This document shows positions 41,621-60,776 of a stretch of 64,000 nucleotides of DNA, one piece after another. Below the pieces are notes generated by a model that did not search any database, was not told the origin of the DNA, and worked only from the letters and a program-made list of their open reading frames with translations. The translations under genes and the position numbers were made by a program. Source of the DNA: Acidobacteria bacterium Ga0074141 (GTDB taxonomy: Bacteria; Acidobacteriota; Blastocatellia; Pyrinomonadales; Pyrinomonadaceae). The stretch covers positions 158,157 through 222,156 of the forward strand of contig LNDP01000023.1 in the NCBI GenBank assembly GCA_001464665.1. The letters are read 5' to 3'. Every line of letters begins with the position of its first letter. Position 1 is the stretch's first letter.

Positions 41621-43123
41621 ATGAGATCTATCAAGACGGGTTTTTCCGCTTTTCTTTTGCTCACATTCCTGAGCGTTTCCGCCTTAGCTGCAACATTTAC
41701 CGTCACGAAGACCGCTGATACAAACGACGGCACGTGTGACGCCGACTGCTCGCTCCGCGAAGCCGTGGCCGCCGCGAATGCGGCAGGTTCGGACGACTCG
41801 ATCGTCTTTTCGAGCCTTTTTGACTCACCACAGATCATTACACTTTCCGGTACCGAGATCGTTATCAACAATGCCGGTACTCTGACGATCACAGGACCGG
41901 GAGCGAACCTACTTACGGTCAGCGGCAACAACACGAGCCGCATTTTTCAGAATACGGTCGGGGCAGTAACGTCAATGAGCGGTATGACCTTGACCGGCGG
42001 TAACGGGGTCAGCACGTTCAACAACAATAGCGGCGGTGCGATACAGAATTCCGGGACCATGACCCTTACCGCGATGATAATCACTGGAAACACGACCTCC
42101 GGATCGGCCGGCGGGATAAGAAACAGCAGTACGGGCAGCCAGCTCACGATCAACGGCTGTATCATTTCAAATAATACTTCGACCGGTAGTTCAGCCGGCG
42201 GTATCCAAAACTTCAGCACCAGCACGTTGACAGTCAACAACACTACGTTTACAGGCAACCTGAGCGGCGGCGGCTCGGTCGGCGGCGGAGCGATGCAGGT
42301 CAATGGAACTGCGCGTATCACCAACTCGACCTTCTCCGGTAACACAAGCAATACAACCGGCGGCGGTGGTGCGATGAACATCAATGGTTCATCGATCGTA
42401 ATTACGAACGTAACGATCAGTGGAAATTCGGCTCCGAACAACGGTGGCGGTATCCACCGAGGCACGACGAATGCCAATTTCTTTATTCGCAATACGATTA
42501 TTGCGGGAAACAACGGCACTGCCGCCTCGCCGGACATTACGAATTCGACGGGCGGACTCCAATCGCAGGGCAACAACATCATCGGCAACGTCGGCACAAG
42601 CACCGGATGGGTCGCCTCTGATCTTCTAAATACTGCTCCTCTGCTTGGTGCACTGGCTGATAATGGCGGGTTCGGACAGACCTTCCTTCCGCAGGCAGGT
42701 TCACCTGCGATCGATGGCGGGCAAAATTGCGTTCGTGACCTTTCTTGCAAAGCCAACAATCCGCCGGCTGCGGTCACCGATGATCAACGCGGCGTTTCCA
42801 GAACAACAAATGGCAACGTTGATATCGGCTCGGTCGAAGTAGCAGCTGTCGCTCCGGTAAGTGTTAGCGGTCAGGTCCTTGTGGCCGAAGGCGTTGCACT
42901 TCCGCTTGCACTTGTCTCGATTACCGACGGCAACGAGACGCGTTACTTCATAACGAACAGCTTCGGATACTTCAATTTCGAAGGGCTGAGTGCCGGCACT
43001 GAATACACAATTACGGTAAGCAGCAAGGCCGCGAACTACCCGCCGCTTCTGGTGACACCGACAGATGACATCGACGGAATTATCTTCCTTCCGATTGTCG
43101 CTCTCCGAGCGGATAGCAAATAG
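41621..43123 (+). CDS. secreted CSLREA-domain parallel beta-helix protein with C-terminal CarboxypepD_reg-like module
   Basis: GGAGGA RBS and a signal peptide (FLLLTFLSVSALA). It has the DGTCDADCSLREAVAAAN motif and many GG..GGAI.N / N.TFSGN beta-helix rungs. The last roughly 95 aa contain SGQVL...TNSFGYFNFEGL..GTEYTITV. Confidence 0.75.
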   Translation: MRSIKTGFSAFLLLTFLSVSALAATFTVTKTADTNDGTCDADCSLREAVAAANAAGSDDSIVFSSLFDSPQIITLSGTEIVINNAGTLTITGPGANLLTVSGNNTSRIFQNTVGAVTSMSGMTLTGGNGVSTFNNNSGGAIQNSGTMTLTAMIITGNTTSGSAGGIRNSSTGSQLTINGCIISNNTSTGSSAGGIQNFSTSTLTVNNTTFTGNLSGGGSVGGGAMQVNGTARITNSTFSGNTSNTTGGGGAMNINGSSIVITNVTISGNSAPNNGGGIHRGTTNANFFIRNTIIAGNNGTAASPDITNSTGGLQSQGNNIIGNVGTSTGWVASDLLNTAPLLGALADNGGFGQTFLPQAGSPAIDGGQNCVRDLSCKANNPPAAVTDDQRGVSRTTNGNVDIGSVEVAAVAPVSVSGQVLVAEGVALPLALVSITDGNETRYFITNSFGYFNFEGLSAGTEYTITVSSKAANYPPLLVTPTDDIDGIIFLPIVALRADSK

Positions 43124-43150: not shown

Positions 43151-43831
43151 TCATTCGCAAAACTTATATCCCAACCCGTGAACGGTCTGTATATGTGCAG
43201 GCCGTTTCGGATTTTCCTCTAGCTTTTGCCGAAGCCAGGCGATGTGCACGTCCACGGTCCGGGTCGAGGGCATCGCGTCGTAACCCCAAACGTGGTCGAG
43301 CAGTTCATCCCGCGAATGTACGATGCCGCGGTTCTCCACCAAAAACCGAAGTAGTTTGAACTCCATTGCCGAAAGCTCGACTGGCTCGCCCGATCGCCGT
43401 ACCTCGGCACGGGCGAGGTCGATGGTCACGTTGCCAAACGCCGCCGCTCCGTTGATCTGCCCGCTAACGCTTCTCGACCGCCGCATCAATGCTTCGATCC
43501 GGGCCAGCAGTTCGGCGACCTCGAAAGGTTTCGTCAGGTAGTCGTCGGCCCCGAGCTTTAGCCCGAGCACTTTATCGATGGTCTCGCCCTTTGCCGTAAG
43601 CATCAGCACCGGTGTTTCAACACCGCGGCGGCGAAGGTCGCGGCAAACGTCGTAACCATTCTTTTTCGGGAGCATTATGTCGAGGATGATGAGGTCAAAG
43701 CTCTGCGAGGTCGCCAAGCGAAAACCCGCTTCACCATCCACCGCCGAGACGACCTCATAGCCTTCGGCCGTTAGGCGGTCCGTGAGGGTTAAGATCAATC
43801 CCTTTTCATCTTCGACGAGCAGAATCTTCAT
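43151..43831 (-). CDS. OmpR-family response regulator
   Basis: Receiver domain MKILLVEDE...DLIILDIMLP...KP and a winged-helix C-terminus (LTAMEFKLL..., IQTVHGLGYKF). Confidence 0.92.
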   Translation of the reverse strand: MKILLVEDEKGLILTLTDRLTAEGYEVVSAVDGEAGFRLATSQSFDLIILDIMLPKKNGYDVCRDLRRRGVETPVLMLTAKGETIDKVLGLKLGADDYLTKPFEVAELLARIEALMRRSRSVSGQINGAAAFGNVTIDLARAEVRRSGEPVELSAMEFKLLRFLVENRGIVHSRDELLDHVWGYDAMPSTRTVDVHIAWLRQKLEENPKRPAHIQTVHGLGYKFCE

Positions 43832-45672
43832 TGCTTCTCCGCGGCGGCCAGAAGCGAAATGGTGAACGTGCTGCCTTTTCCGGGCACGCTCTCGACCTCG
43901 ACCGAACCGCCGTGTGCCGCCACTATCTCCTTAACGAGCGACAGACCAAGACCGTTCCCGCTTATCTGTGAATCGACCACCTGCCGTGCACGAAAGAACG
44001 GCTCAAAGATCTTTTTGAGATCTTTTTCCGCGATGCCGATGCCGTGATCCTTCACCGAGATGGCAACCCGCCCGTTTCCGTTCACGGCAGCAACCTCGAT
44101 CCGCGGAGTGCCGTTCGAATACTTAACGGCATTGTTGATAAGGTTCTGGATAGCGAGGCTCAAAGCTGTACGATCAGCGTTGATCATCGGCAAGGCCGCG
44201 GCAACCTCGATCTCGATCTCAGCGGGCAACCCATCGATCGCTCCCCGGCATTCGGTCACGACATCTCTGACGATCTCGCCGACATCAGCCGGCACAAAAT
44301 TGTACCGCCGCTTGCCCGAACGGGCTCCGGCAAATTCGAGTATCTGCTCGACCATCCCGGTCAGCTTGCGGCCCTCGCCTTTTATCAATTCGCCATATCG
44401 GGCGACCTGGTCGTCACTCCGGGCAACGCCATCAGCAAGGTTTTCGCCTGCTGAATAAATGACCGCGAGCGGCGTCCGAAACTCGTGCGAAACGCTCGAG
44501 ACAAAGTCCACCTGCTTTTGGGCGAACGTCCGTGCCCGGTTGGCCGAGATCGTAATCGCAAGAATACTTCCGACAAGCAGCAAATAGATGCCGGCACCGA
44601 TCGCCAGGTTTTTTCGCTCCTCGCTGCGGATGTAATCACCGATCGAGCCCGAGGCGTGCGTGACGTTCAGCTTCCAGGGCTGCTCGTCCGCTGGAGTTGC
44701 GATCACCGCACTTCGCTGGCGGACACCATCGTTGCTTCGCATCTCGAAAGTAAAAGTGCTGTCGCGTTCACGTGCCGGCGAGGGCGAGGTCGTCATGGTC
44801 GAGCTCTCGATCCGCTGATCGACGATCACGTTTGCCGGTGCGGCCATTCGCCGAGGAAGGTCAAGCTCGCGATTCGCAAAAAAGATCATCGTGTTCGGGC
44901 GAAGGTCGTAAAGCCCAGCGGACGCATCCGTTTCGGCCGCCGGATCTACATTGCCGAAGATCGGCGAGCCATTCTTGTCGGCGATTGCAACGCGATAATC
45001 GCCCGACGGAAAATGCTTTGCCGCAAGCTCGGGCAAGATCTTGCCGGTGATGACCGACCGCTCAAGCCGAACGACCATGTGGCCTTCATTCTTCGGCTCC
45101 TGCTCCGGCAATTCGACCGTCCGGCCAATGGCCGCGACGCGCGGTATCCGGTCAACAACGATCCGTTGTATCTGGCGCTCAAATGCGTGGACCGGCATCA
45201 CAAGCGTATCCAGGTCGTCGAGTATCGGCATCGGCCGCATCGCGGGCGAAGCGATTCGCTCCCGAATCCTTCCAAGCCGGTCGTCCGCCGCAAACTCTGT
45301 AAATTTCCCGGCTGATCCGTCATACCGTCGCGGCGGTGCCGACGCGTCAGCCGGCAAATAGATGATCTCGCGAACGAGTTCGGGATACGCCGTTTTCACC
45401 AGCCAGAACGCATAACGCTCGTTAAGCTCGGTCAGGTCGCCGCTTTTCAGAACCTCGGCGTTCAACTGAAAATTGAAATAGATCGACTGTATCTCGCGAT
45501 TAAAATCATCGGCAAAAGCCTTCGTGTCGGCCTCGGCCCGCCGCTGCATTCGCTCGCGTTCGGCCTCGCTCGCTTCGCGCATCCAGCGATACTGCAGCCC
45601 GAAAAAGAGCGTCAACACGGCGATCACTGCGGTCAGGATAAGATATGGCAGCCAGGTTCGTTTCATTCCCAT
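43828..45672 (-). CDS. sensor histidine kinase with large periplasmic domain
   Basis: Two TM helices flank a region of about 330 aa. It has the H-box SHEFRTPL, N-box NLINNAVKY, and G-boxes DHGIGI and GNGLGLSLV. It overlaps the regulator gene by 4 nt. Confidence 0.9.
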   Translation of the reverse strand: MGMKRTWLPYLILTAVIAVLTLFFGLQYRWMREASEAERERMQRRAEADTKAFADDFNREIQSIYFNFQLNAEVLKSGDLTELNERYAFWLVKTAYPELVREIIYLPADASAPPRRYDGSAGKFTEFAADDRLGRIRERIASPAMRPMPILDDLDTLVMPVHAFERQIQRIVVDRIPRVAAIGRTVELPEQEPKNEGHMVVRLERSVITGKILPELAAKHFPSGDYRVAIADKNGSPIFGNVDPAAETDASAGLYDLRPNTMIFFANRELDLPRRMAAPANVIVDQRIESSTMTTSPSPARERDSTFTFEMRSNDGVRQRSAVIATPADEQPWKLNVTHASGSIGDYIRSEERKNLAIGAGIYLLLVGSILAITISANRARTFAQKQVDFVSSVSHEFRTPLAVIYSAGENLADGVARSDDQVARYGELIKGEGRKLTGMVEQILEFAGARSGKRRYNFVPADVGEIVRDVVTECRGAIDGLPAEIEIEVAAALPMINADRTALSLAIQNLINNAVKYSNGTPRIEVAAVNGNGRVAISVKDHGIGIAEKDLKKIFEPFFRARQVVDSQISGNGLGLSLVKEIVAAHGGSVEVESVPGKGSTFTISLLAAAEKQ

Positions 45673-55126: not shown

Positions 55127-55813
55127 TTGAAGTTTAATTCATTGGTTCGTATAGCGTTGTCCGTTTTGTGTTTGGGTGTTTTTGCGTCGGCTACGGTTGT
55201 AGCCCAAGACCGCCCAAGGGTGGTAAAGCCGGTCTCGAGCCGGCCGATCAATCAACCGCCCGCCCCTCCGCAAACCCAGCCAGTAGTCACCCGCTCAACC
55301 TCACAACGCCCCGTACTTACCAGTGATGTAAATGTTGTCCCCGCAGTGCCGCTCGTGAAAAAGACCGGCGAATCGAGCCCGGTCAAGGCGATGAACAAGG
55401 CCGCCGCCCGCCGAACGGTCTATGGCGGTTCCGCATCCAGCCTCATCCTTCAAGGTATCAACAGCCGTCTTGGCATCCCGTATCGCTATGGCTCACAGGG
55501 TCCGTACACCTATGATTGCTCCGGATTCGTCTGGTCCGTCTTCCGCGACTCGGGCATCGAGTTCGAACGGACGAGTGCTCGTTCGCTTTGGGCGATGTCA
55601 ACTCCGGTGACCGGCGATGACCGCTACGTATTCGGCACTCTCGTGTTCCTGAACAAACTCGGCCACATCGGCATCGTTGCCGATGAGAACGGTTTCTACC
55701 ACGCCTCGCGCAGTAAAGGAATCACGTACTCGCCTTTCAAAGGGTATTGGGAAAAACGAATTGACGGTTTCCGCAGACTGGATCTGCCGGTCGCCGATAC
55801 TCTGGCCAAATAG
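55127..55813 (+). CDS. NlpC/P60 (C40) cell-wall peptidase
   Basis: TTG start, a signal peptide, a Pro/Gln-rich linker, the catalytic YDCSGFVWSVF, and GHIGIV (His). Confidence 0.85.
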   Translation: MKFNSLVRIALSVLCLGVFASATVVAQDRPRVVKPVSSRPINQPPAPPQTQPVVTRSTSQRPVLTSDVNVVPAVPLVKKTGESSPVKAMNKAAARRTVYGGSASSLILQGINSRLGIPYRYGSQGPYTYDCSGFVWSVFRDSGIEFERTSARSLWAMSTPVTGDDRYVFGTLVFLNKLGHIGIVADENGFYHASRSKGITYSPFKGYWEKRIDGFRRLDLPVADTLAK

Positions 55814-55888
55814 CCATCACGAACATAACTTTTCGAAAGCCGGGGAACTTTGCTTCTCCGGCTTTCCTGCTTTTGGGTAACGTACCCG

Positions 55889-56098
55889 TCAGGCAATAAA
55901 GCCCGGCCGGCTATTCGAATGGGTCGATTCGCCGAAGGCAGCCACATGCGCGATCGAGACGTTGAACGTCTTCCCGTCCTCGTCAGCTATCACAACGATC
56001 CCGTTGCCGACAGACTTTACCTTACCGCGTAGTGTCACGCCCGGTCCGATCACCAGATCGACCTCTTTTCCTTCCATTCCGGCTAAAAGCTCTTCCAT
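55889..56098 (-). CDS. small hypothetical protein (possible Sm/PRC-barrel-like fold)
   Basis: 69-aa ORF: GKEVDLVIGPGVTLRGKVKSVGNGIVVIADEDGKTFNVSIAHV. The pattern of short beta strands resembles small Sm-like proteins. This is weak evidence. Confidence 0.4.
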   Translation of the reverse strand: MEELLAGMEGKEVDLVIGPGVTLRGKVKSVGNGIVVIADEDGKTFNVSIAHVAAFGESTHSNSRPGFIA

Positions 56099-56259
56099 AA
56101 ATATAATTAGATAACAGAATATTTTGCCGTTTCATTCTATTCCCTTCTCCGTTTAACGCCAAGCCACCGCCGATCGAATGTGAATCTTGCACTTTAGTGT
56201 TCAGATTGACCGATTTTCGCTCATTTCGCGTCACAGTCGATCAATTTGAAAAATTAGTG

Positions 56260-56288
56260 TTGCGTTATGTTTGTCACCGTTGTAAATT
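56260..56288 (+). promoter_or_regulatory. candidate promoter of the S8 peptidase gene
   Basis: TTGCGT, a 17-nt spacer, then TAAATT. A perfect 7-bp hairpin ACTCACG gtt CGTGAGT (56297..56313) follows. Confidence 0.3.
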
Positions 56289-56383
56289 GTTAGCTGACTC
56301 ACGGTTCGTGAGTTGATCCTATCGCCCCTCTCAAAAAGGCCTCGCAGTACCCCATCTCAGTTTTAGGAGCTGATCAAACCAAA

Positions 56384-58249
56384 ATGAAAAGACTCTCTCT
56401 TGTCCTTGTCGTAGGCATAGCCGCCATGTCGGCTCTCCTGGTTCTCTCACCACAAACCTCGGGTAAGTCTGAAAAACTGATCAAGCACGAAAATTCCGTC
56501 CCCGGAAGGTATATTGTCGTATTTGATCCTGATTCGGTTCAGGGGTTTTCTACCGAAGCGGAAATGAGCGCCGTCTCGCACAATATCGCCGCCGAATATA
56601 ACGCGGCTGTCGATAAAGTGTGGGAAAGCGCCGTTCAGGGCTTCTCGGCCGAAATGTCCCCCAAAGATGCCGAGCGCCTCAGCCGCGACCCGCGCGTCAA
56701 GCTGGTCGAAGAGGATATGATCGCCTATGCCGGCAACGTGCAGGGCTCTGCTGACTGGGGGCTTGACCGTATTGACCAACGTGGACTACCGCTGAATGGC
56801 GCATTTACCTATTCCGAAACCGGACAGGGCGTAAATGTCTATGTGATCGATAGCGGCATCCGCCCGACCCACGTCGAATTTGGCGGGCGAGCGGCTGTTG
56901 CTTTTGACGCGGTCAACGACGGCCAGAACGGCATTGACTGCCACGGACACGGTACGCACGTCGCCGGAACGGTCGCAAGTTCGACCTACGGCGTCGCGAA
57001 GCAAGCAAACGTCTATGGCGTTCGCGTGCTTTCCTGCGGCGGCTCAGGACTCGTTTCAAACATCATTACCGGCGTCAACTGGGTTAAGAACAATCGCGTA
57101 AACCCGGCAGTCGTCAACATGAGCCTCTGGGTCAGTGCCGTTTCGACTACGCTTGACAGCGCGATCAACAGCTCGGTCGCCTCGGGCGTAACGCACGTTG
57201 TTGCCGCCGGCAATCGCAACCTTGACGCCTGTAACTATTCGCCTTCAAGCGCATCGTCGGCACTTGTTGTCGCCGCGACCGGCAGCGATGACGCGAAGGC
57301 TTCCTATTCGAACTGGGGGACGTGTGTCGATCTCTTCGCTCCAGGCTCCGGCATCACATCGCTCGGGCATTCGAGCGACACAGCAATTCGTGGCATGAGC
57401 GGCACATCGATGTCCTCGCCGATGGTCGCCGGTGCCGCAGCACTTTATCTTCAGGCAAATCCGACCGCAAGCCCGACGACCTTAAAGAATCGCATTCTTG
57501 CCGATTCGACATCCGGTGTTGTCAGCGGGCTCGACACCGTAACGCCAAACAAAATGCTTTACTCATGGCTTGGCGATTCGCAGCCGCCGACACCAGGTTC
57601 GGTCACGATAATCAAGCAGGTCCTTACGGCCACCGGCGGAACAGCATCCACCGATACCTTTACGTACTCTGCCAGCAACATCGGAGCGACCGCTTTCACG
57701 CTAGTTGATAACGACGCCCCACCCGAGGACCGGTACGTGGACGCAAACGTATTTGTCCAGAATGTTTCGAGCACGATAGCAGTTAGCGAAGATATTAAGC
57801 ACGGCTGGCAGCTCAACTCCATCAACTGTGTCGAAACCGCCGGCGGCGGGCTACCCAATCAGCAGAACACCACGACCGATCTCAATACAAAAACCGCTAA
57901 CATCATTGTCGAAGAGGGCGAAGCGGTCACCTGCACCTTCACAAGTAGCCAGATCGCTCCAACCTCGGCCGGTGCGACCGTCATGGGTCGTGTGTTGAAT
58001 GACGACGGTTCGGCTATATCATCCTCTCGCTTGACCCTGCTAAACCTTTCGACCGGTGAAGAGTGGTCGGCGTTGACCAACTCATTCGGCTACTTTGTAT
58101 TTGAGGGAATACCGGTTTCTGGCTTCTATGCTGTCTCGGTCAATGAAAGCAAGCGGCACGTTTTCGCCCCGGCGACCCGGACATTCTCGCTCGACGGCGA
58201 CATAAGCGGCCTCGACTTCGAGGCATCTCAGCGAACAGAATGGCCATGA
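56384..58249 (+). CDS. secreted S8 (proteinase K-like) serine peptidase with I9 propeptide and C-terminal CarboxypepD_reg-like module
   Basis: AGGAG RBS, a signal peptide and an I9-like propeptide (YIVVF...GFSAEMS). The catalytic triad is VYVIDSGI (Asp), HGTHVAGT (His) and GTSMSSPMVAG (Ser). A prealbumin-like middle domain (GWQLNSINC...VTCTFTS) is followed by GRVLNDDG...TNSFGYFVFEGI... Confidence 0.92.
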   Translation: MKRLSLVLVVGIAAMSALLVLSPQTSGKSEKLIKHENSVPGRYIVVFDPDSVQGFSTEAEMSAVSHNIAAEYNAAVDKVWESAVQGFSAEMSPKDAERLSRDPRVKLVEEDMIAYAGNVQGSADWGLDRIDQRGLPLNGAFTYSETGQGVNVYVIDSGIRPTHVEFGGRAAVAFDAVNDGQNGIDCHGHGTHVAGTVASSTYGVAKQANVYGVRVLSCGGSGLVSNIITGVNWVKNNRVNPAVVNMSLWVSAVSTTLDSAINSSVASGVTHVVAAGNRNLDACNYSPSSASSALVVAATGSDDAKASYSNWGTCVDLFAPGSGITSLGHSSDTAIRGMSGTSMSSPMVAGAAALYLQANPTASPTTLKNRILADSTSGVVSGLDTVTPNKMLYSWLGDSQPPTPGSVTIIKQVLTATGGTASTDTFTYSASNIGATAFTLVDNDAPPEDRYVDANVFVQNVSSTIAVSEDIKHGWQLNSINCVETAGGGLPNQQNTTTDLNTKTANIIVEEGEAVTCTFTSSQIAPTSAGATVMGRVLNDDGSAISSSRLTLLNLSTGEEWSALTNSFGYFVFEGIPVSGFYAVSVNESKRHVFAPATRTFSLDGDISGLDFEASQRTEWP

Positions 58250-58280
58250 TCGCCTTCTAACCGCAAAACAGTAATAAAAA

Positions 58281-58315
58281 AACGCCTCGGTTTCGGCCGG
58301 GGCGTTCTACATTTT
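58281..58315 (+). terminator. terminator of the S8 peptidase gene
   Basis: AACGCCTCGG tttcgg CCGGGGCGTT stem. The downstream T-run is weak (TCTACATTTT). Confidence 0.6.
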
Positions 58316-58773
58316 CGGCGTCTGATCTGCGTTTTTAGGCGTAAATGGGGCATCGGTCAGGATGGATCAAAATACGTCAATGTATTTTTTGGAAAATGTC
58401 TGGAATGGCACTATACTCAGGCAAACGGAATGATAAAAGACGTCCTCTAATGAACGCATTCGACGTCCGAGATATTGTGGGCAGGATTAACAGCGACCAC
58501 AACCGGGTTCGATTTCATGCATTAGCGGAGAGTTTATTTGAAAAGCTTTTAACACTTACCGAACTTGGGACTTTTGATTTTTCTGACATACTTAGAATAA
58601 TTTGTTAGGCCCAACGGTAATGACCTTTAATGCACAAGTTTAGCGGCTTTGATCGAGGGCTCGGCGGGGAAACCCCGTCTCCGATGTATCGGAGATCTCC
58701 CCCGTCGGTTCACCGAATGAGTCCAGTCTGGTTCTCCTTTAGGGAGACTGTCGGTTTAGGAGTAAAGAGAATT

Positions 58774-59589
58774 ATGCGTTTCCCCCATGGAACAATTTCA
58801 AAGGTAGCAGCAGCGTTCATGCTCTGCACACTCGTATTTGTCAATTTGACCGCTGCTCAGTTCAAGAGCTCGGATGAAGATTCAAAGATCACCAAGATCG
58901 AAACACGTGCCGAGGTAGCACCGACTCCAGATCCGCTGCCCGGAAATCCGACCTGTGCCAGCATTAATCCTGCGTGGGGCGAATACAAGCTCGACTTTGA
59001 ATTTCCAAATGGCTCATTTCCATTCACGGCTCAGGGTGTGGTTCCGAAAAGAACTTACGACGCCGGCGGAACCGGATTGGCTCCGAACCCGAATCTGTAC
59101 ATGAACGTGTCTTCGTCAGGAGCAACGATGACGCAGTGGTCGCTTAGCCCGATCAATCAGATCGATCGGCTTATCGTTTACGTGATCGTAAAGGGCGGCA
59201 ATAGTGCCAACGGCTATTCGTACCCCACAGGATCGATCGGTGATACGGGGTCATTCACAACTCAAGGAACTCGAAATGCTATCAGCCACCTTACGTTCTG
59301 CTTCGATGCCTTTAGCGGGCCGTCGTCGGCTCCGGTTTCGATCTCGGGCCGAGCTCTGACTTCCGATGGGTCTGGGATCGCCTATACCCGTATTGAGGTA
59401 ATGGACCTTTCGACCGGTGAGGTAGTATCAGCGGTGACGAACCATTTCGGCTATTACACCGTCCCGCAGCTCGAGGCCGAGGCGATCTATATGGTGACAG
59501 CGATGCATAAGCGACATACGTTTATCAATAATCAAAGGACCGTGACGGCTAGCGAGGATCTGGCCGGGGTAGACTTCGTCGCTCCGTAG
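58774..59589 (+). CDS. secreted protein of unknown family with C-terminal CarboxypepD_reg-like module (paralog 1)
   Basis: The ATG at 58774 follows AGGAG and gives a signal peptide (AAAFMLCTLVFVNLTAAQ). It has a novel N-domain of about 150 aa with 2 conserved Cys, then FSGPSSAPVSISGRALT...TNHFGYYTV...AGVDFVAP. Confidence 0.65.
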   Translation: MRFPHGTISKVAAAFMLCTLVFVNLTAAQFKSSDEDSKITKIETRAEVAPTPDPLPGNPTCASINPAWGEYKLDFEFPNGSFPFTAQGVVPKRTYDAGGTGLAPNPNLYMNVSSSGATMTQWSLSPINQIDRLIVYVIVKGGNSANGYSYPTGSIGDTGSFTTQGTRNAISHLTFCFDAFSGPSSAPVSISGRALTSDGSGIAYTRIEVMDLSTGEVVSAVTNHFGYYTVPQLEAEAIYMVTAMHKRHTFINNQRTVTASEDLAGVDFVAP

Positions 59590-59681
59590 TCATTCGAGTT
59601 TTGAAGCCAGTCGTGGCCCGGAATAAGACGCATAGAAGCTCTGATCGACGACAAATGTCGCTCGCGTAGGCTTGATATTTG

Positions 59682-59726
59682 TTGACATGTCTGAATTTAT
59701 CTGTTAAACATTCCATATTGTTTAAC
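59682..59726 (+). promoter_or_regulatory. candidate promoter plus palindromic operator of paralog 2
   Basis: TTGACA (59682..59687), a 17-nt spacer, then TAAACA. The perfect inverted repeat GTTAAACA-N8-TGTTTAAC (59703..59726) overlaps the -10. Confidence 0.4.
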
Positions 59727-59810
59727 ATATTGGCAGAGCCCCGGACCGGCCTTTCCGTCCGGTAATTTGGGTCCGAGTGCCCTTTTGCATTAAAGAGGAG
59801 TTAAGGAGTT

Positions 59811-60698
59811 ATGAGTTTCCCCAAGATAAGTTTCGCAAGAATTCAGTTATTCCGTTACTTGGCTTTTACCGTCTGCGTGGTAATGCTATCGCAGGCGTCT
59901 TTCGCACAGTTCGCTAGGCAAGCTCCGGTAGGAAAAACCTTGTTGACACGTGAAGATACTAAAGCACCGTTGGGCACCGATCAGATCGCCCCAACCCCGA
60001 TCCAGGTCACCTACGGCTACAGTGTTTGTAAGGAGATCTTTGATACTGGTGACCCGCGGTTTCCGCAGGTCTCAAATGAGGCAGAATTGATTATCAATTC
60101 GATCCCGCCCTTTCCGGCTCCGGCGTCGCTGATCACGGGGATCAATCCGATTCGACAGCACTTCCCGGGAAGTCTCGGCGACAATACGAACTTGTTTATC
60201 GCCTTCAACAATGTCGGCAACACATCGTTCACGGGTTGGGATCTGAGTTGGACATCACCAGCCAACGTCGACCGGCTCGTCTCGATCATAGCGATCCGAG
60301 CGAATCCTTCGGGACTTACGAATGTTTACTCGTACCCGAATTTGGCGGCAAGTGATACGGGCACGTTTACGGCTCCCGGCGGTGGAGTGATTGATCAGAT
60401 CAACATTTGCTTTGAGCCGTTCTCAGGGCCTTCGTCTGCTCCGGTTGCGATCTCGGGTCGTGCATTGACCGCGGAGGGTATGGGAATTTCCGGAACGAGA
60501 ATAACCGCAGTGAACATTTCGACTGGCGAATCCCACTCGGCCATCACCAATCCTTTCGGGTACTACTCGGTCGAAGGACTCGTTTCCGAAGCGATCTATA
60601 TGGTCACTGCAACTCACAAGCGTCACACGTTCCTCAATAATCAGAGAACGATCACCGTCAGTGAAGAAATTGCCGGTGTCGATTTCGTAGCTCCGTAG
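59811..60698 (+). CDS. secreted protein of unknown family with C-terminal CarboxypepD_reg-like module (paralog 2)
   Basis: AAGGAG RBS and a signal peptide (LAFTVCVVMLSQASFAQ). It is collinear with 58774..59589, and the two share the blocks DRLV, YSYP, DTGxFT, ICFE/FCFD and FSGPSSAPVxISGRALT, and end identically in AGVDFVAP. Confidence 0.65.
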   Translation: MSFPKISFARIQLFRYLAFTVCVVMLSQASFAQFARQAPVGKTLLTREDTKAPLGTDQIAPTPIQVTYGYSVCKEIFDTGDPRFPQVSNEAELIINSIPPFPAPASLITGINPIRQHFPGSLGDNTNLFIAFNNVGNTSFTGWDLSWTSPANVDRLVSIIAIRANPSGLTNVYSYPNLAASDTGTFTAPGGGVIDQINICFEPFSGPSSAPVAISGRALTAEGMGISGTRITAVNISTGESHSAITNPFGYYSVEGLVSEAIYMVTATHKRHTFLNNQRTITVSEEIAGVDFVAP

Positions 60699-60743
60699 AA
60701 AACAGCAGAAAAGAACTCCCATCGAAGATCTTATCTGGGGAGA

Positions 60744-60776
60744 AAAAAGGCGGCCCGCTTCCAAGCGGCCGCCTTT
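60744..60776. terminator. bidirectional terminator between paralog 2 and accC
   Basis: AAAAAAGGCGGCCCGC ttccaa GCGGCCGCCTTT. Confidence 0.8.

Follow-up and report, generated by a model that had tools for sequence, protein, structure and literature searches.

A single-copy C-terminal CarboxypepD_reg tail on a subtilase and two small paralogs of an Acidobacteriota bacterium, read as a generic tail of exported proteins

The window analyzed here is a stretch of 64,000 nucleotides (nt) from Acidobacteria bacterium Ga0074141 (contig LNDP01000023.1, positions 158,157 to 222,156). It contains three consecutive plus-strand genes, which encode an S8 protease (56384..58249, 621 amino acids [aa]) and two paralogs, ParA (58774..59589, 271 aa) and ParB (59811..60698, 295 aa), and all three products end in the same C-terminal module, hereafter called the tail. 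On balance, we favor the reading that these are three independently exported proteins that share a generic, lineage-wide tail, and not a dedicated protease system. The original prediction had offered two explanations side by side, a common targeting or anchoring tail and a set made up of the protease and its substrates or partners. The first is the best supported, although unproven, and it applies to a large class of Blastocatellia proteins rather than to this locus. The single terminal copy of the tail, its diverse carriers with signal peptides, and its exchangeability are in its favor, whereas the fold is an ordinary transthyretin (TTR)/CnaB fold and no machinery was found among the neighbors of the listed tail genes. 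The open reading frames (ORFs) and upstream sites agree with the arrangement that had been described. Each gene has a GGAG-type ribosome-binding site 3–15 nt 5' of its start codon and encodes a signal-peptide-like N-terminal segment, and the gaps 5' of S8, ParA, and ParB are 285, 524, and 221 nt, respectively, the first being counted from a 69-aa gene on the minus strand.

The tail was characterized by alignment, profile searches, and structure prediction. The alignment of the three ~90-aa C-terminal modules contains 33 invariant columns. The modules of ParA and ParB are 70% identical to each other, and the S8 module is 40–42% identical to both; over their full length, ParA and ParB are 42% identical (E = 2e-62). 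The CarboxypepD_reg family (PF13620) matched S8 with 34.4 bits and ParB with 32.9 bits, above the gathering cutoff of 32.3 bits, and ParA with 31.1 bits, just under it. NCBIfam gave nothing above its cutoffs on S8, ParA, or ParB. The AlphaFold2 (AF2) model of the tail has seven strands with a predicted local distance difference test (pLDDT) score of 95.9, and its Foldseek matches in the PDB, with template modeling (TM) scores of 0.6–0.83, are TTR/CnaB-type sandwiches. They include SlaB (S-layer), CnaB2, SdrD B, the TTR domain of teneurin, the N-terminal extension of SusC (9hfj), carboxypeptidase N (2nsm), and the transthyretin-like (TTL) domain of carboxypeptidase D (3mn8, 5aq0). Because the sequence and the fold both match, the tail is assigned as a bona fide CarboxypepD_reg domain, in line with the likeness originally proposed, and not as a C-terminal domain (CTD) of the type IX secretion system (T9SS). 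The tail module of S8 (57962..58249, +) starts with '...PTSAGATVMGRV' and includes 'TNSFGYFVF' and '...GLDFEASQRTEWP'. It is bounded by PTSA and LDFEASQRTEWP-stop, and the tails of ParA and ParB by PSSA and VDFVAP-stop; both fit the edges found in the census described below. The signature of the tail is [PTAA/PSSA]-x-V-S-I-S-G-R-V ... T-N-x-F-G-Y-Y-x-F ... [DN]-F-V-A-x-P-COOH.

The census was taken by scanning metagenome contigs for the motif TNPFGYYxF, which gave at least 120 matches, and it lists 112 loci with a module verified by a hidden Markov model (HMM); all counts of tail carriers given here are among the matches listed. These loci hold 122 carrier ORFs with one copy of the tail apiece, and the carriers range from ~150 to 2224 aa in length. 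The tail stands at the very end of the protein: among the 120 carriers closed by a stop codon, 101 end 0–5 aa after the module and 12 end 6–15 aa after it, so that 113 end within 15 aa, and only 2 run on for more than 40 aa. The edges of the module are sharp. The distance from the TN motif to the stop is 39–44 residues in 92 of 111 sequences, a PTAA-like motif (PTAA, PSAA, PTSA, or PSSA) precedes the TN motif by 38–39 aa in 54 of 113, and the usual ending is [DN]F[VIT]A-x-P-stop. The same position was found in the proteins that join the tail to a head domain like that of ParA and ParB, since all 102 of them have a single terminal copy, 87 ending within 5 residues of the C-terminus and all within 21.

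The proteins that carry the tail are of many kinds. Across 66 complete carriers, 57 Pfam families were detected, and PF13620 itself matched in 57 of the 66. The passengers include beta-propellers (DUF5122, NHL, lactonase, and YNCE), Beta_helix, P_proprotein, S8 with I9, Endonuclease_NS, and GSDH, as well as Big_3_5, Big_9, Cadherin_5, Cohesin, DUF11, FG-GAP, and Laminin_G_3. A signal-peptide-like N-terminus was called by a crude home-made predictor in 51 of the 66 carriers, compared with 62 of 204 control ORFs. Only 3 of the 122 carriers are S8 proteases, and only 2 have the ParA/ParB head. Other unrelated carriers are P0019, P0020, and a 569-aa protein in locus L029. A fourth carrier was found in the window itself by an HMM of the three modules (36 bits, E = 2.5e-10). 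Its gene (41621..43123, +) encodes a signal peptide, a CSLREA motif, a beta-helix/choice-of-anchor Q region, and the tail, and the product matches TIGR04214 with 37.7 bits and NF041518 with 60 bits. This brings the tail carriers of the window to four, and their passengers fall into three unrelated architectures. The listed genome loci that combine the head domain with the tail number six, all from Acidobacteriota: Pyrinomonadaceae (two loci), Aridibacter, Blastocatellia, and two unclassified 'Acidobacteria'. The tail was absent from the listed head-domain loci of Bryobacteraceae, Thermoanaerobaculia, and Holophagales. A search of a protein database with the tail profile returned 39 short fragments and was not used as a census.

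The history of the tail differs from that of the proteins to which it is attached. The S8 protease of the window and its orthologue in L004 (L004:4799-6658) are 91% identical over the signal peptide and I9 region, 92% over the catalytic domain, and 84% over SpaA_4, but only 42% over the tail; the same four regions are 96, 97, 90, and 83% identical to those of L013. The contrast between the catalytic domain and the tail in the first comparison indicates that the tail was replaced in one lineage by recombination between close relatives. With the L013 orthologue set apart (83%), the S8 tail is 35–46% identical to the other tails compared, orthologues included, and the tails of its own neighbors (40–42%) do not resemble it more than that of the unrelated P0019 (45%) does. 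ParA and ParB of the same genome, both here (tails at 59314..59589 and 60423..60698) and in L004 and L007, are 27–34% identical in their heads and 66–73% identical in their tails, whereas orthologous tails at the distance of L007 are 55–59% identical. Since the two tails within a genome are closer to each other than to their orthologues, they have probably been homogenized by gene conversion. Both tails of a genome also share a genome-specific ending, 'VAP' here and 'VTAW' or 'VSAW' in L007, which looks like concerted evolution.

C-terminal sorting or attachment signals are known from other systems, namely T9SS CTDs, PEP-CTERM, and LPXTG. No recognized C-terminal sorting signal was detected on S8, ParA, or ParB. 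The case for a role of the tail in a step common to all carriers has three parts: its positional rules are those of C-terminal sorting domains and differ from what is usual for stalk or binding repeats; in phyla with T9SS, this position is taken by a T9SS CTD in proteins with a homologous head; and aqualysin, the nearest characterized protease, depends on a C-terminal pro-sequence for its secretion. Blastocatellia-type Acidobacteriota place the tail, as a generic, exchangeable, single-copy C-terminal module, on a wide range of exported proteins. In the mechanism that we propose, all carriers would share one step after Sec export: the tail would either keep them in the envelope or matrix or assist their passage across, or release from, the outer membrane, and the latter option would resemble the C-terminal pro-sequence of aqualysin. 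The three genes of the locus would be neighbors that draw on the same lineage-wide tail, and not a protease with its substrates.

A close functional parallel is the T9SS CTD, in the sense of a domain that may work alike and not of membership. Like the T9SS CTD, the tail is a beta-sandwich of ~80–90 aa that occurs once, at the very C-terminus, in Sec-exported proteins with very diverse passengers (proteases, nucleases, adhesins, and beta-propellers), and the Bacteroidota/Rhodothermota homologues of the ParA/ParB head hold a genuine T9SS CTD in the position of the tail. However, S8, ParA, and ParB have no match to PF18962 or TIGR04183 at E <= 1, although the same searches find the domain in P0156 and L039. 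In addition, the fold family of the tail is TTR/CnaB, and the host here belongs to Acidobacteriota. TIGR04183 has been stated to be exclusive to the Fibrobacteres-Chlorobi-Bacteroidetes (FCB) superphylum (PMC4737851). A second parallel concerns Oar, a TonB-dependent transporter with PF13620 at its N-terminus, on which the secretion of the S8 protease PopC depends in Myxococcus (PMC6434023). The domain of Oar/SusC proteins shares both the Pfam family and the fold of the tail; it differs in being N-terminal and part of an outer-membrane transporter, whereas the tail is C-terminal on soluble exported proteins and forms a distinct subtype with conserved edges. Oar-type outer-membrane transporters, which have the same fold at their periplasmic N-terminus, are a speculative candidate for the recognizer of the tail. 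The HMM of the three modules found no Oar-like gene with a detectable PF13620 in the 64-kb window. Both the Oar/PopC lead and the Armatimonadetes amyloid lead discussed below are only analogies.

A more specific proposal is possible, although we consider it somewhat doubtful: the tail subtype may be an unrecognized Blastocatellia sorting or surface-attachment domain served by undescribed machinery, and the head of ParA and ParB may be a new pan-phylum 'tip' domain with a fold absent from the PDB. Our literature search yielded neither experimental data nor an account of this cluster or of a PF13620 sorting tail at the C-terminus; its only related results were the Oar/PopC paper, the statement on aqualysin, and the Armatimonadetes amyloid hypothesis.

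Judged from its sequence, the head of ParA and ParB represents an undescribed pan-phylum family, predicted to form the N-terminal part of surface proteins and without a structural relative in the PDB. The two paralogs would be small exported proteins in which a disulfide-containing beta-sandwich head is fused straight to the CarboxypepD_reg tail. In ParA, the signal peptide is followed by the head (58918..59319, +; residues ~49–182), which contains a conserved Cys pair, then by a 'GPSSAP' linker, and then by the tail; ParB has the same architecture, with the head at ~60–206 and the tail at ~205–295. The head of ParA served as the query for the family profile, and the head alignment (A2) comprised 14 sequences over the region from the signal peptide to the 'GPSSAP' linker. 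The N-domain of the paralogs had been described as unassignable, and it has remained so: no Pfam or NCBIfam model matches it, either in ParA/ParB or in the family members scanned. The AF2 model is a confident all-beta structure of 10 strands (pLDDT 91, predicted TM score 0.88), for which neither the PDB (best E 0.27, TM < 0.3) nor BFVD (best E 0.047, TM 0.29) gave a significant match. We also considered the head as a diverged SpaA_4 domain, in which case the paralogs would be partial duplications of the protease tail, and rejected this because the hhalign probability was 1.2%.

The head profile was searched against 1.84 billion cluster representatives, and 157 proteins were found at E <= 1e-3, 63 of them at E <= 1e-10. 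The family signature is C..LN...F.H......K.D...P.G.F...L.GG.P...V...W.s...i.AVIVKGG..ANVY.Y.P...D.GL..P....ISH..FC. The head is almost always N-terminal. It is joined directly to the tail in 74 proteins and through SpaA_4 to the tail in 28, and it also occurs behind an extra Ig-like domain, alone, or at the tip of repeat proteins of 700–2800 aa. The proteins tipped by it in other phyla are long and surface- or adhesin-like. The domains found with it are the stalk repeats SpaA, SdrD_B, DUF11, DUF7507, PKD, Ig_7, and SprB. Head proteins of Bacteroidota/Rhodothermota with a C-terminal Por_Secre_tail make up 3 of 104 in the census, among them P0156 (PF18962, 29.5 bits; TIGR04183, 46 bits) and L039 (29.4 bits). 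Some family members, P0081, P0090, P0115, and P0134, have two to four heads in tandem. In P0101, P0112, P0148, and P0156, the head is followed by long repeat stalks and a C-terminal region with 'TQGYWKTHS' that has no match in Pfam. P0120 (257 aa) consists of the head, repeated 'PPSVESV' units, a hydrophobic C-terminal segment, and basic residues, which has the look of a membrane or sortase-type anchor and matches no model.

The distribution of the head was followed in species-representative genomes with the degenerate DNA motif IVKGGx[NDTA]AN[VA]Y, which gave at least 120 matches, 100 of them verified by HMM; the counts of head loci refer to these listed matches. The verified loci belong to Chloroflexota, Actinomycetota, Bacteroidota, Acidobacteriota, Gemmatimonadota, KSB1, Saccharibacteria, and two archaea. 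Only 2 of the 100, each an orthologue of the present locus, have an S8 gene close by, which argues that the head is not a protease partner but a surface-protein 'tip' domain not described before. The family resembles the 'choice-of-anchor' proteins of NCBI (e.g., NF041518), in which one head has lineage-dependent C-terminal ends: the ParA/ParB head is combined with the CarboxypepD_reg tail in some proteins and in others with long repeat stalks, a T9SS CTD, or, in P0120, a hydrophobic tail, and the fourth carrier of the window is itself a choice-of-anchor Q protein. It differs from them in that the ParA/ParB head has no match in NCBIfam or Pfam.

By its motifs and domain order, the S8 gene is predicted to encode a pre-pro subtilase of the proteinase K/aqualysin subgroup. 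The order is a signal peptide (1–~27, with the signal-peptide-like N-terminus MKRLSLVLVVGIAAMSALLVLSPQTSG), I9 (42–113), the catalytic domain (~120–396), SpaA_4 (411–521), and the CarboxypepD_reg tail (~527–621). Peptidase_S8 (PF00082) matched with 127 bits (cutoff 21.8) and Inhibitor_I9 (PF05922) with 37.9 bits (cutoff 21.2); SpaA_4, with 38.4 bits, corresponds to the prealbumin-like middle domain that had been noted together with the I9 propeptide. The motifs VIDSG (D156), HGTHVAG (H189), AAGN (N277), and GTSMSSP (S342) are intact, and the closest solved structures are keratinase 5wsl (8e-100) and aqualysin-1 4dzt (2e-97). The protein would thus be an extracellular protease made as a pre-pro-enzyme, with a Sec signal peptide, an I9 intramolecular chaperone, the catalytic domain, and an extension of SpaA_4 plus CarboxypepD_reg. 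For aqualysin, a passage of PMC3158780 citing Kim & Matsuzawa 2000 gives the C-terminal pro-sequence as needed for secretion and then removed, so C-terminal extensions are a known feature of this enzyme group. The likeness of the present protease to aqualysin I, its nearest solved relative together with keratinase and also an enzyme with a C-terminal extension, may extend to this part, but here the same CarboxypepD_reg tail is also found on many non-protease proteins.

Several observations weigh against the favored reading. The tail is modeled as a very common TTR/CnaB sandwich that other proteins also use internally, as a stalk or for binding, and its top 50 fold matches in the PDB include no T9SS CTD. 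A recurrent neighbor that could act as sorting machinery was sought around the tail genes and not found, each neighbor cluster being present at 7 or fewer of the 112 listed loci. The sample was picked by TNPFGYYxF, and the census thus covers one subtype and not PF13620 overall; the excess of signal peptides depends on the home-made predictor. Finally, the S8-ParA-ParB order, which is kept down to ~57–60% S8 identity, may leave room for a local functional link.

One alternative is that the tail is a structural or binding beta-sandwich only, serving polysaccharide binding, matrix binding, or passenger stability, and that it is terminal owing to easy recombination at the 3' end of genes. We consider this explanation somewhat doubtful, but it has evidence of its own. 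The fold matches of the tail are to stalk and binding domains (CnaB2, SdrD B, the TTL domains of carboxypeptidase N/D, the teneurin TTR domain, and SlaB), other subtilase C-terminal extensions have been credited with stability or substrate binding (PMC3158780), and no machinery gene recurs beside the tail carriers of the 112 listed loci. However, the tail is present in one copy in all 122 listed carriers and in the further 102 with the head, about 94–99% of the carriers end within 15 aa of the stop, and both the end motif and the PTAA motif before the domain are conserved. Binding and stalk domains are usually variable in position and occur in tandem.

The proposal that S8, ParA, and ParB form a functional unit, in which S8 processes or activates ParA/ParB (or the reverse) and the shared tail brings the partners together, is unlikely, although the gene order is well conserved. 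A ParB search gave only 20 clusters, and all named ones are from metagenome-assembled genomes of Acidobacteria or Pyrinomonadaceae. In every recovered context, the order is an erpA-like gene, NlpC/P60, the 69-aa minus-strand gene with a weak DUF6897 match, S8, one or more paralogs, and a convergent accC, followed by DUF3592, CDP-alcohol phosphatidyltransferase, greA, and pfk. The S8-plus-paralog arrangement is also found in L045, L077, L208, and L228, and the linkage is kept down to 45% ParB identity and 57–60% S8 identity. The constancy of the order from NlpC/P60 to the paralogs and the homogenization of the ParA and ParB tails within a genome would suit such a unit. Nevertheless, the entire neighborhood from erpA to accC, greA, and pfk is syntenic, so descent explains the linkage, which is confined to one vertically inherited syntenic block of Pyrinomonadaceae/Blastocatellia.

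Further evidence against a unit comes from the individual genes. The number of paralogs varies, with one in L014 and two here, in L004, and in L007, and in L012/L013 the place of ParB is taken by another kind of protein. The S8 gene has its own GC-rich terminator-like hairpin (58281..58306, +), which suggests a separate transcription unit, and its tail shows no special similarity to those of the paralogs. No S8 is nearby in 98 of the 100 listed head loci. The suggestion of a locus-specific set of a protease and its substrates or partners is therefore not supported, as S8 lies near only 2 of the 100 listed head loci and makes up only 3 of the 122 listed tail genes; a comparison of the N-domain family with S8 peptidases had been recommended as its check, and the family proved to be scattered at large without S8 linkage. 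The protein in the ParB slot of L012/L013 (L013:4427-5872), which lies beside ParA, is a secreted protein of 481 aa with a different, unrecognized head of ~260 aa, SpaA_4, and the tail, and it lacks the ParA/ParB head.

Very unlikely, and the least probable of the alternatives, is an extracellular matrix or functional amyloid made of transthyretin-like PF13620 proteins with the subtilase as its processing enzyme: PF13620 does belong to the transthyretin clan, and an Armatimonadetes cluster that combines a subtilase and a CsgG-like transporter with a protein containing PF13620 four times has been hypothesized to form amyloid (PMC4737851), but neither the present locus and its surroundings nor the syntenic relatives contain a CsgG-like transporter, PF13620 occurs in each protein only once, at the very end and without repeats, and the tail is found on enzymes of many kinds.

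The reading of the three genes as independently exported proteins with a generic tail is set in the following local layout. The upstream member of the conserved block is a gene for a secreted NlpC/P60 peptidoglycan hydrolase (55127..55813, +; 62 bits), followed by a terminator-like hairpin (55835..55866, +). Between NlpC/P60 and S8 lies the 69-aa gene (55889..56098, -), which is present in every syntenic locus; its match to DUF6897 (19.8 bits) is below the cutoff, and it has no signal peptide. A bidirectional terminator-like hairpin with an A-run, a stem, and a T-run (~60743..60776) separates the convergent ParB and accC genes. The terminators noted at both ends of the region are thus present as hairpins, in addition to the one after S8. 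The guanine-cytosine (GC) content is 0.58 in the S8 gene, 0.51–0.54 in ParA/ParB, 0.50–0.51 in the erpA region, and 0.60–0.65 in accC, so the lower GC content ascribed to the region is correct with respect to accC but not to erpA. A foreign island was considered and rejected, because the block is syntenic in relatives and on account of this GC profile.

The lengths of the intergenic gaps vary among relatives (194–530 nt). A search of the long intergenic regions for regulatory RNAs with Rfam gave only noise below threshold (E >= 0.7). The 524-nt gap before ParA contains an 87-aa ORF (58345..58608, +) and an in-frame extension of the ParA ORF, which is open from 58630 (58630..58773); both are unconserved in relatives and therefore probably non-coding. 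The opposite strand directly 3' of the choice-of-anchor Q gene (43151..45672, -) encodes a histidine kinase and a response regulator that looks OmpR-type from its sequence. The commonest neighbor clusters of the listed tail genes are mreB, mreC, a sulfate-activation enzyme, and a regulator with Trans_reg_C, CsgG-like, and TPR parts. The last is represented by a 792-aa protein (L243:6189-8564) with Trans_reg_C, a CsgG-like segment (27 bits; cutoff 20.8), and TPR; it is the commonest non-housekeeping neighbor, at 7 of the 112 listed loci, a frequency that may just reflect the abundance of its paralogs.

In summary, the locus itself is ordinary, but it brings to light a terminal tail subtype and a pan-phylum head domain, both of them unannotated. 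Acidobacteriota are among the most abundant soil bacteria, and how they export and display proteins is poorly understood. If the tail is an ordinary binding domain, the locus would be an extracellular protease beside two small surface proteins. The head family, with 157 or more cluster representatives, extends over Chloroflexota, Actinomycetota, Bacteroidota, Acidobacteriota, and others, and as it has no Pfam or NCBIfam model and no relative in the PDB, a family should be defined for it. Should the tail prove to be an attachment or export tag, the surface and secreted proteome of Blastocatellia could be predicted by a one-line sequence rule, and the tail would offer a way to find the machinery that recognizes it.

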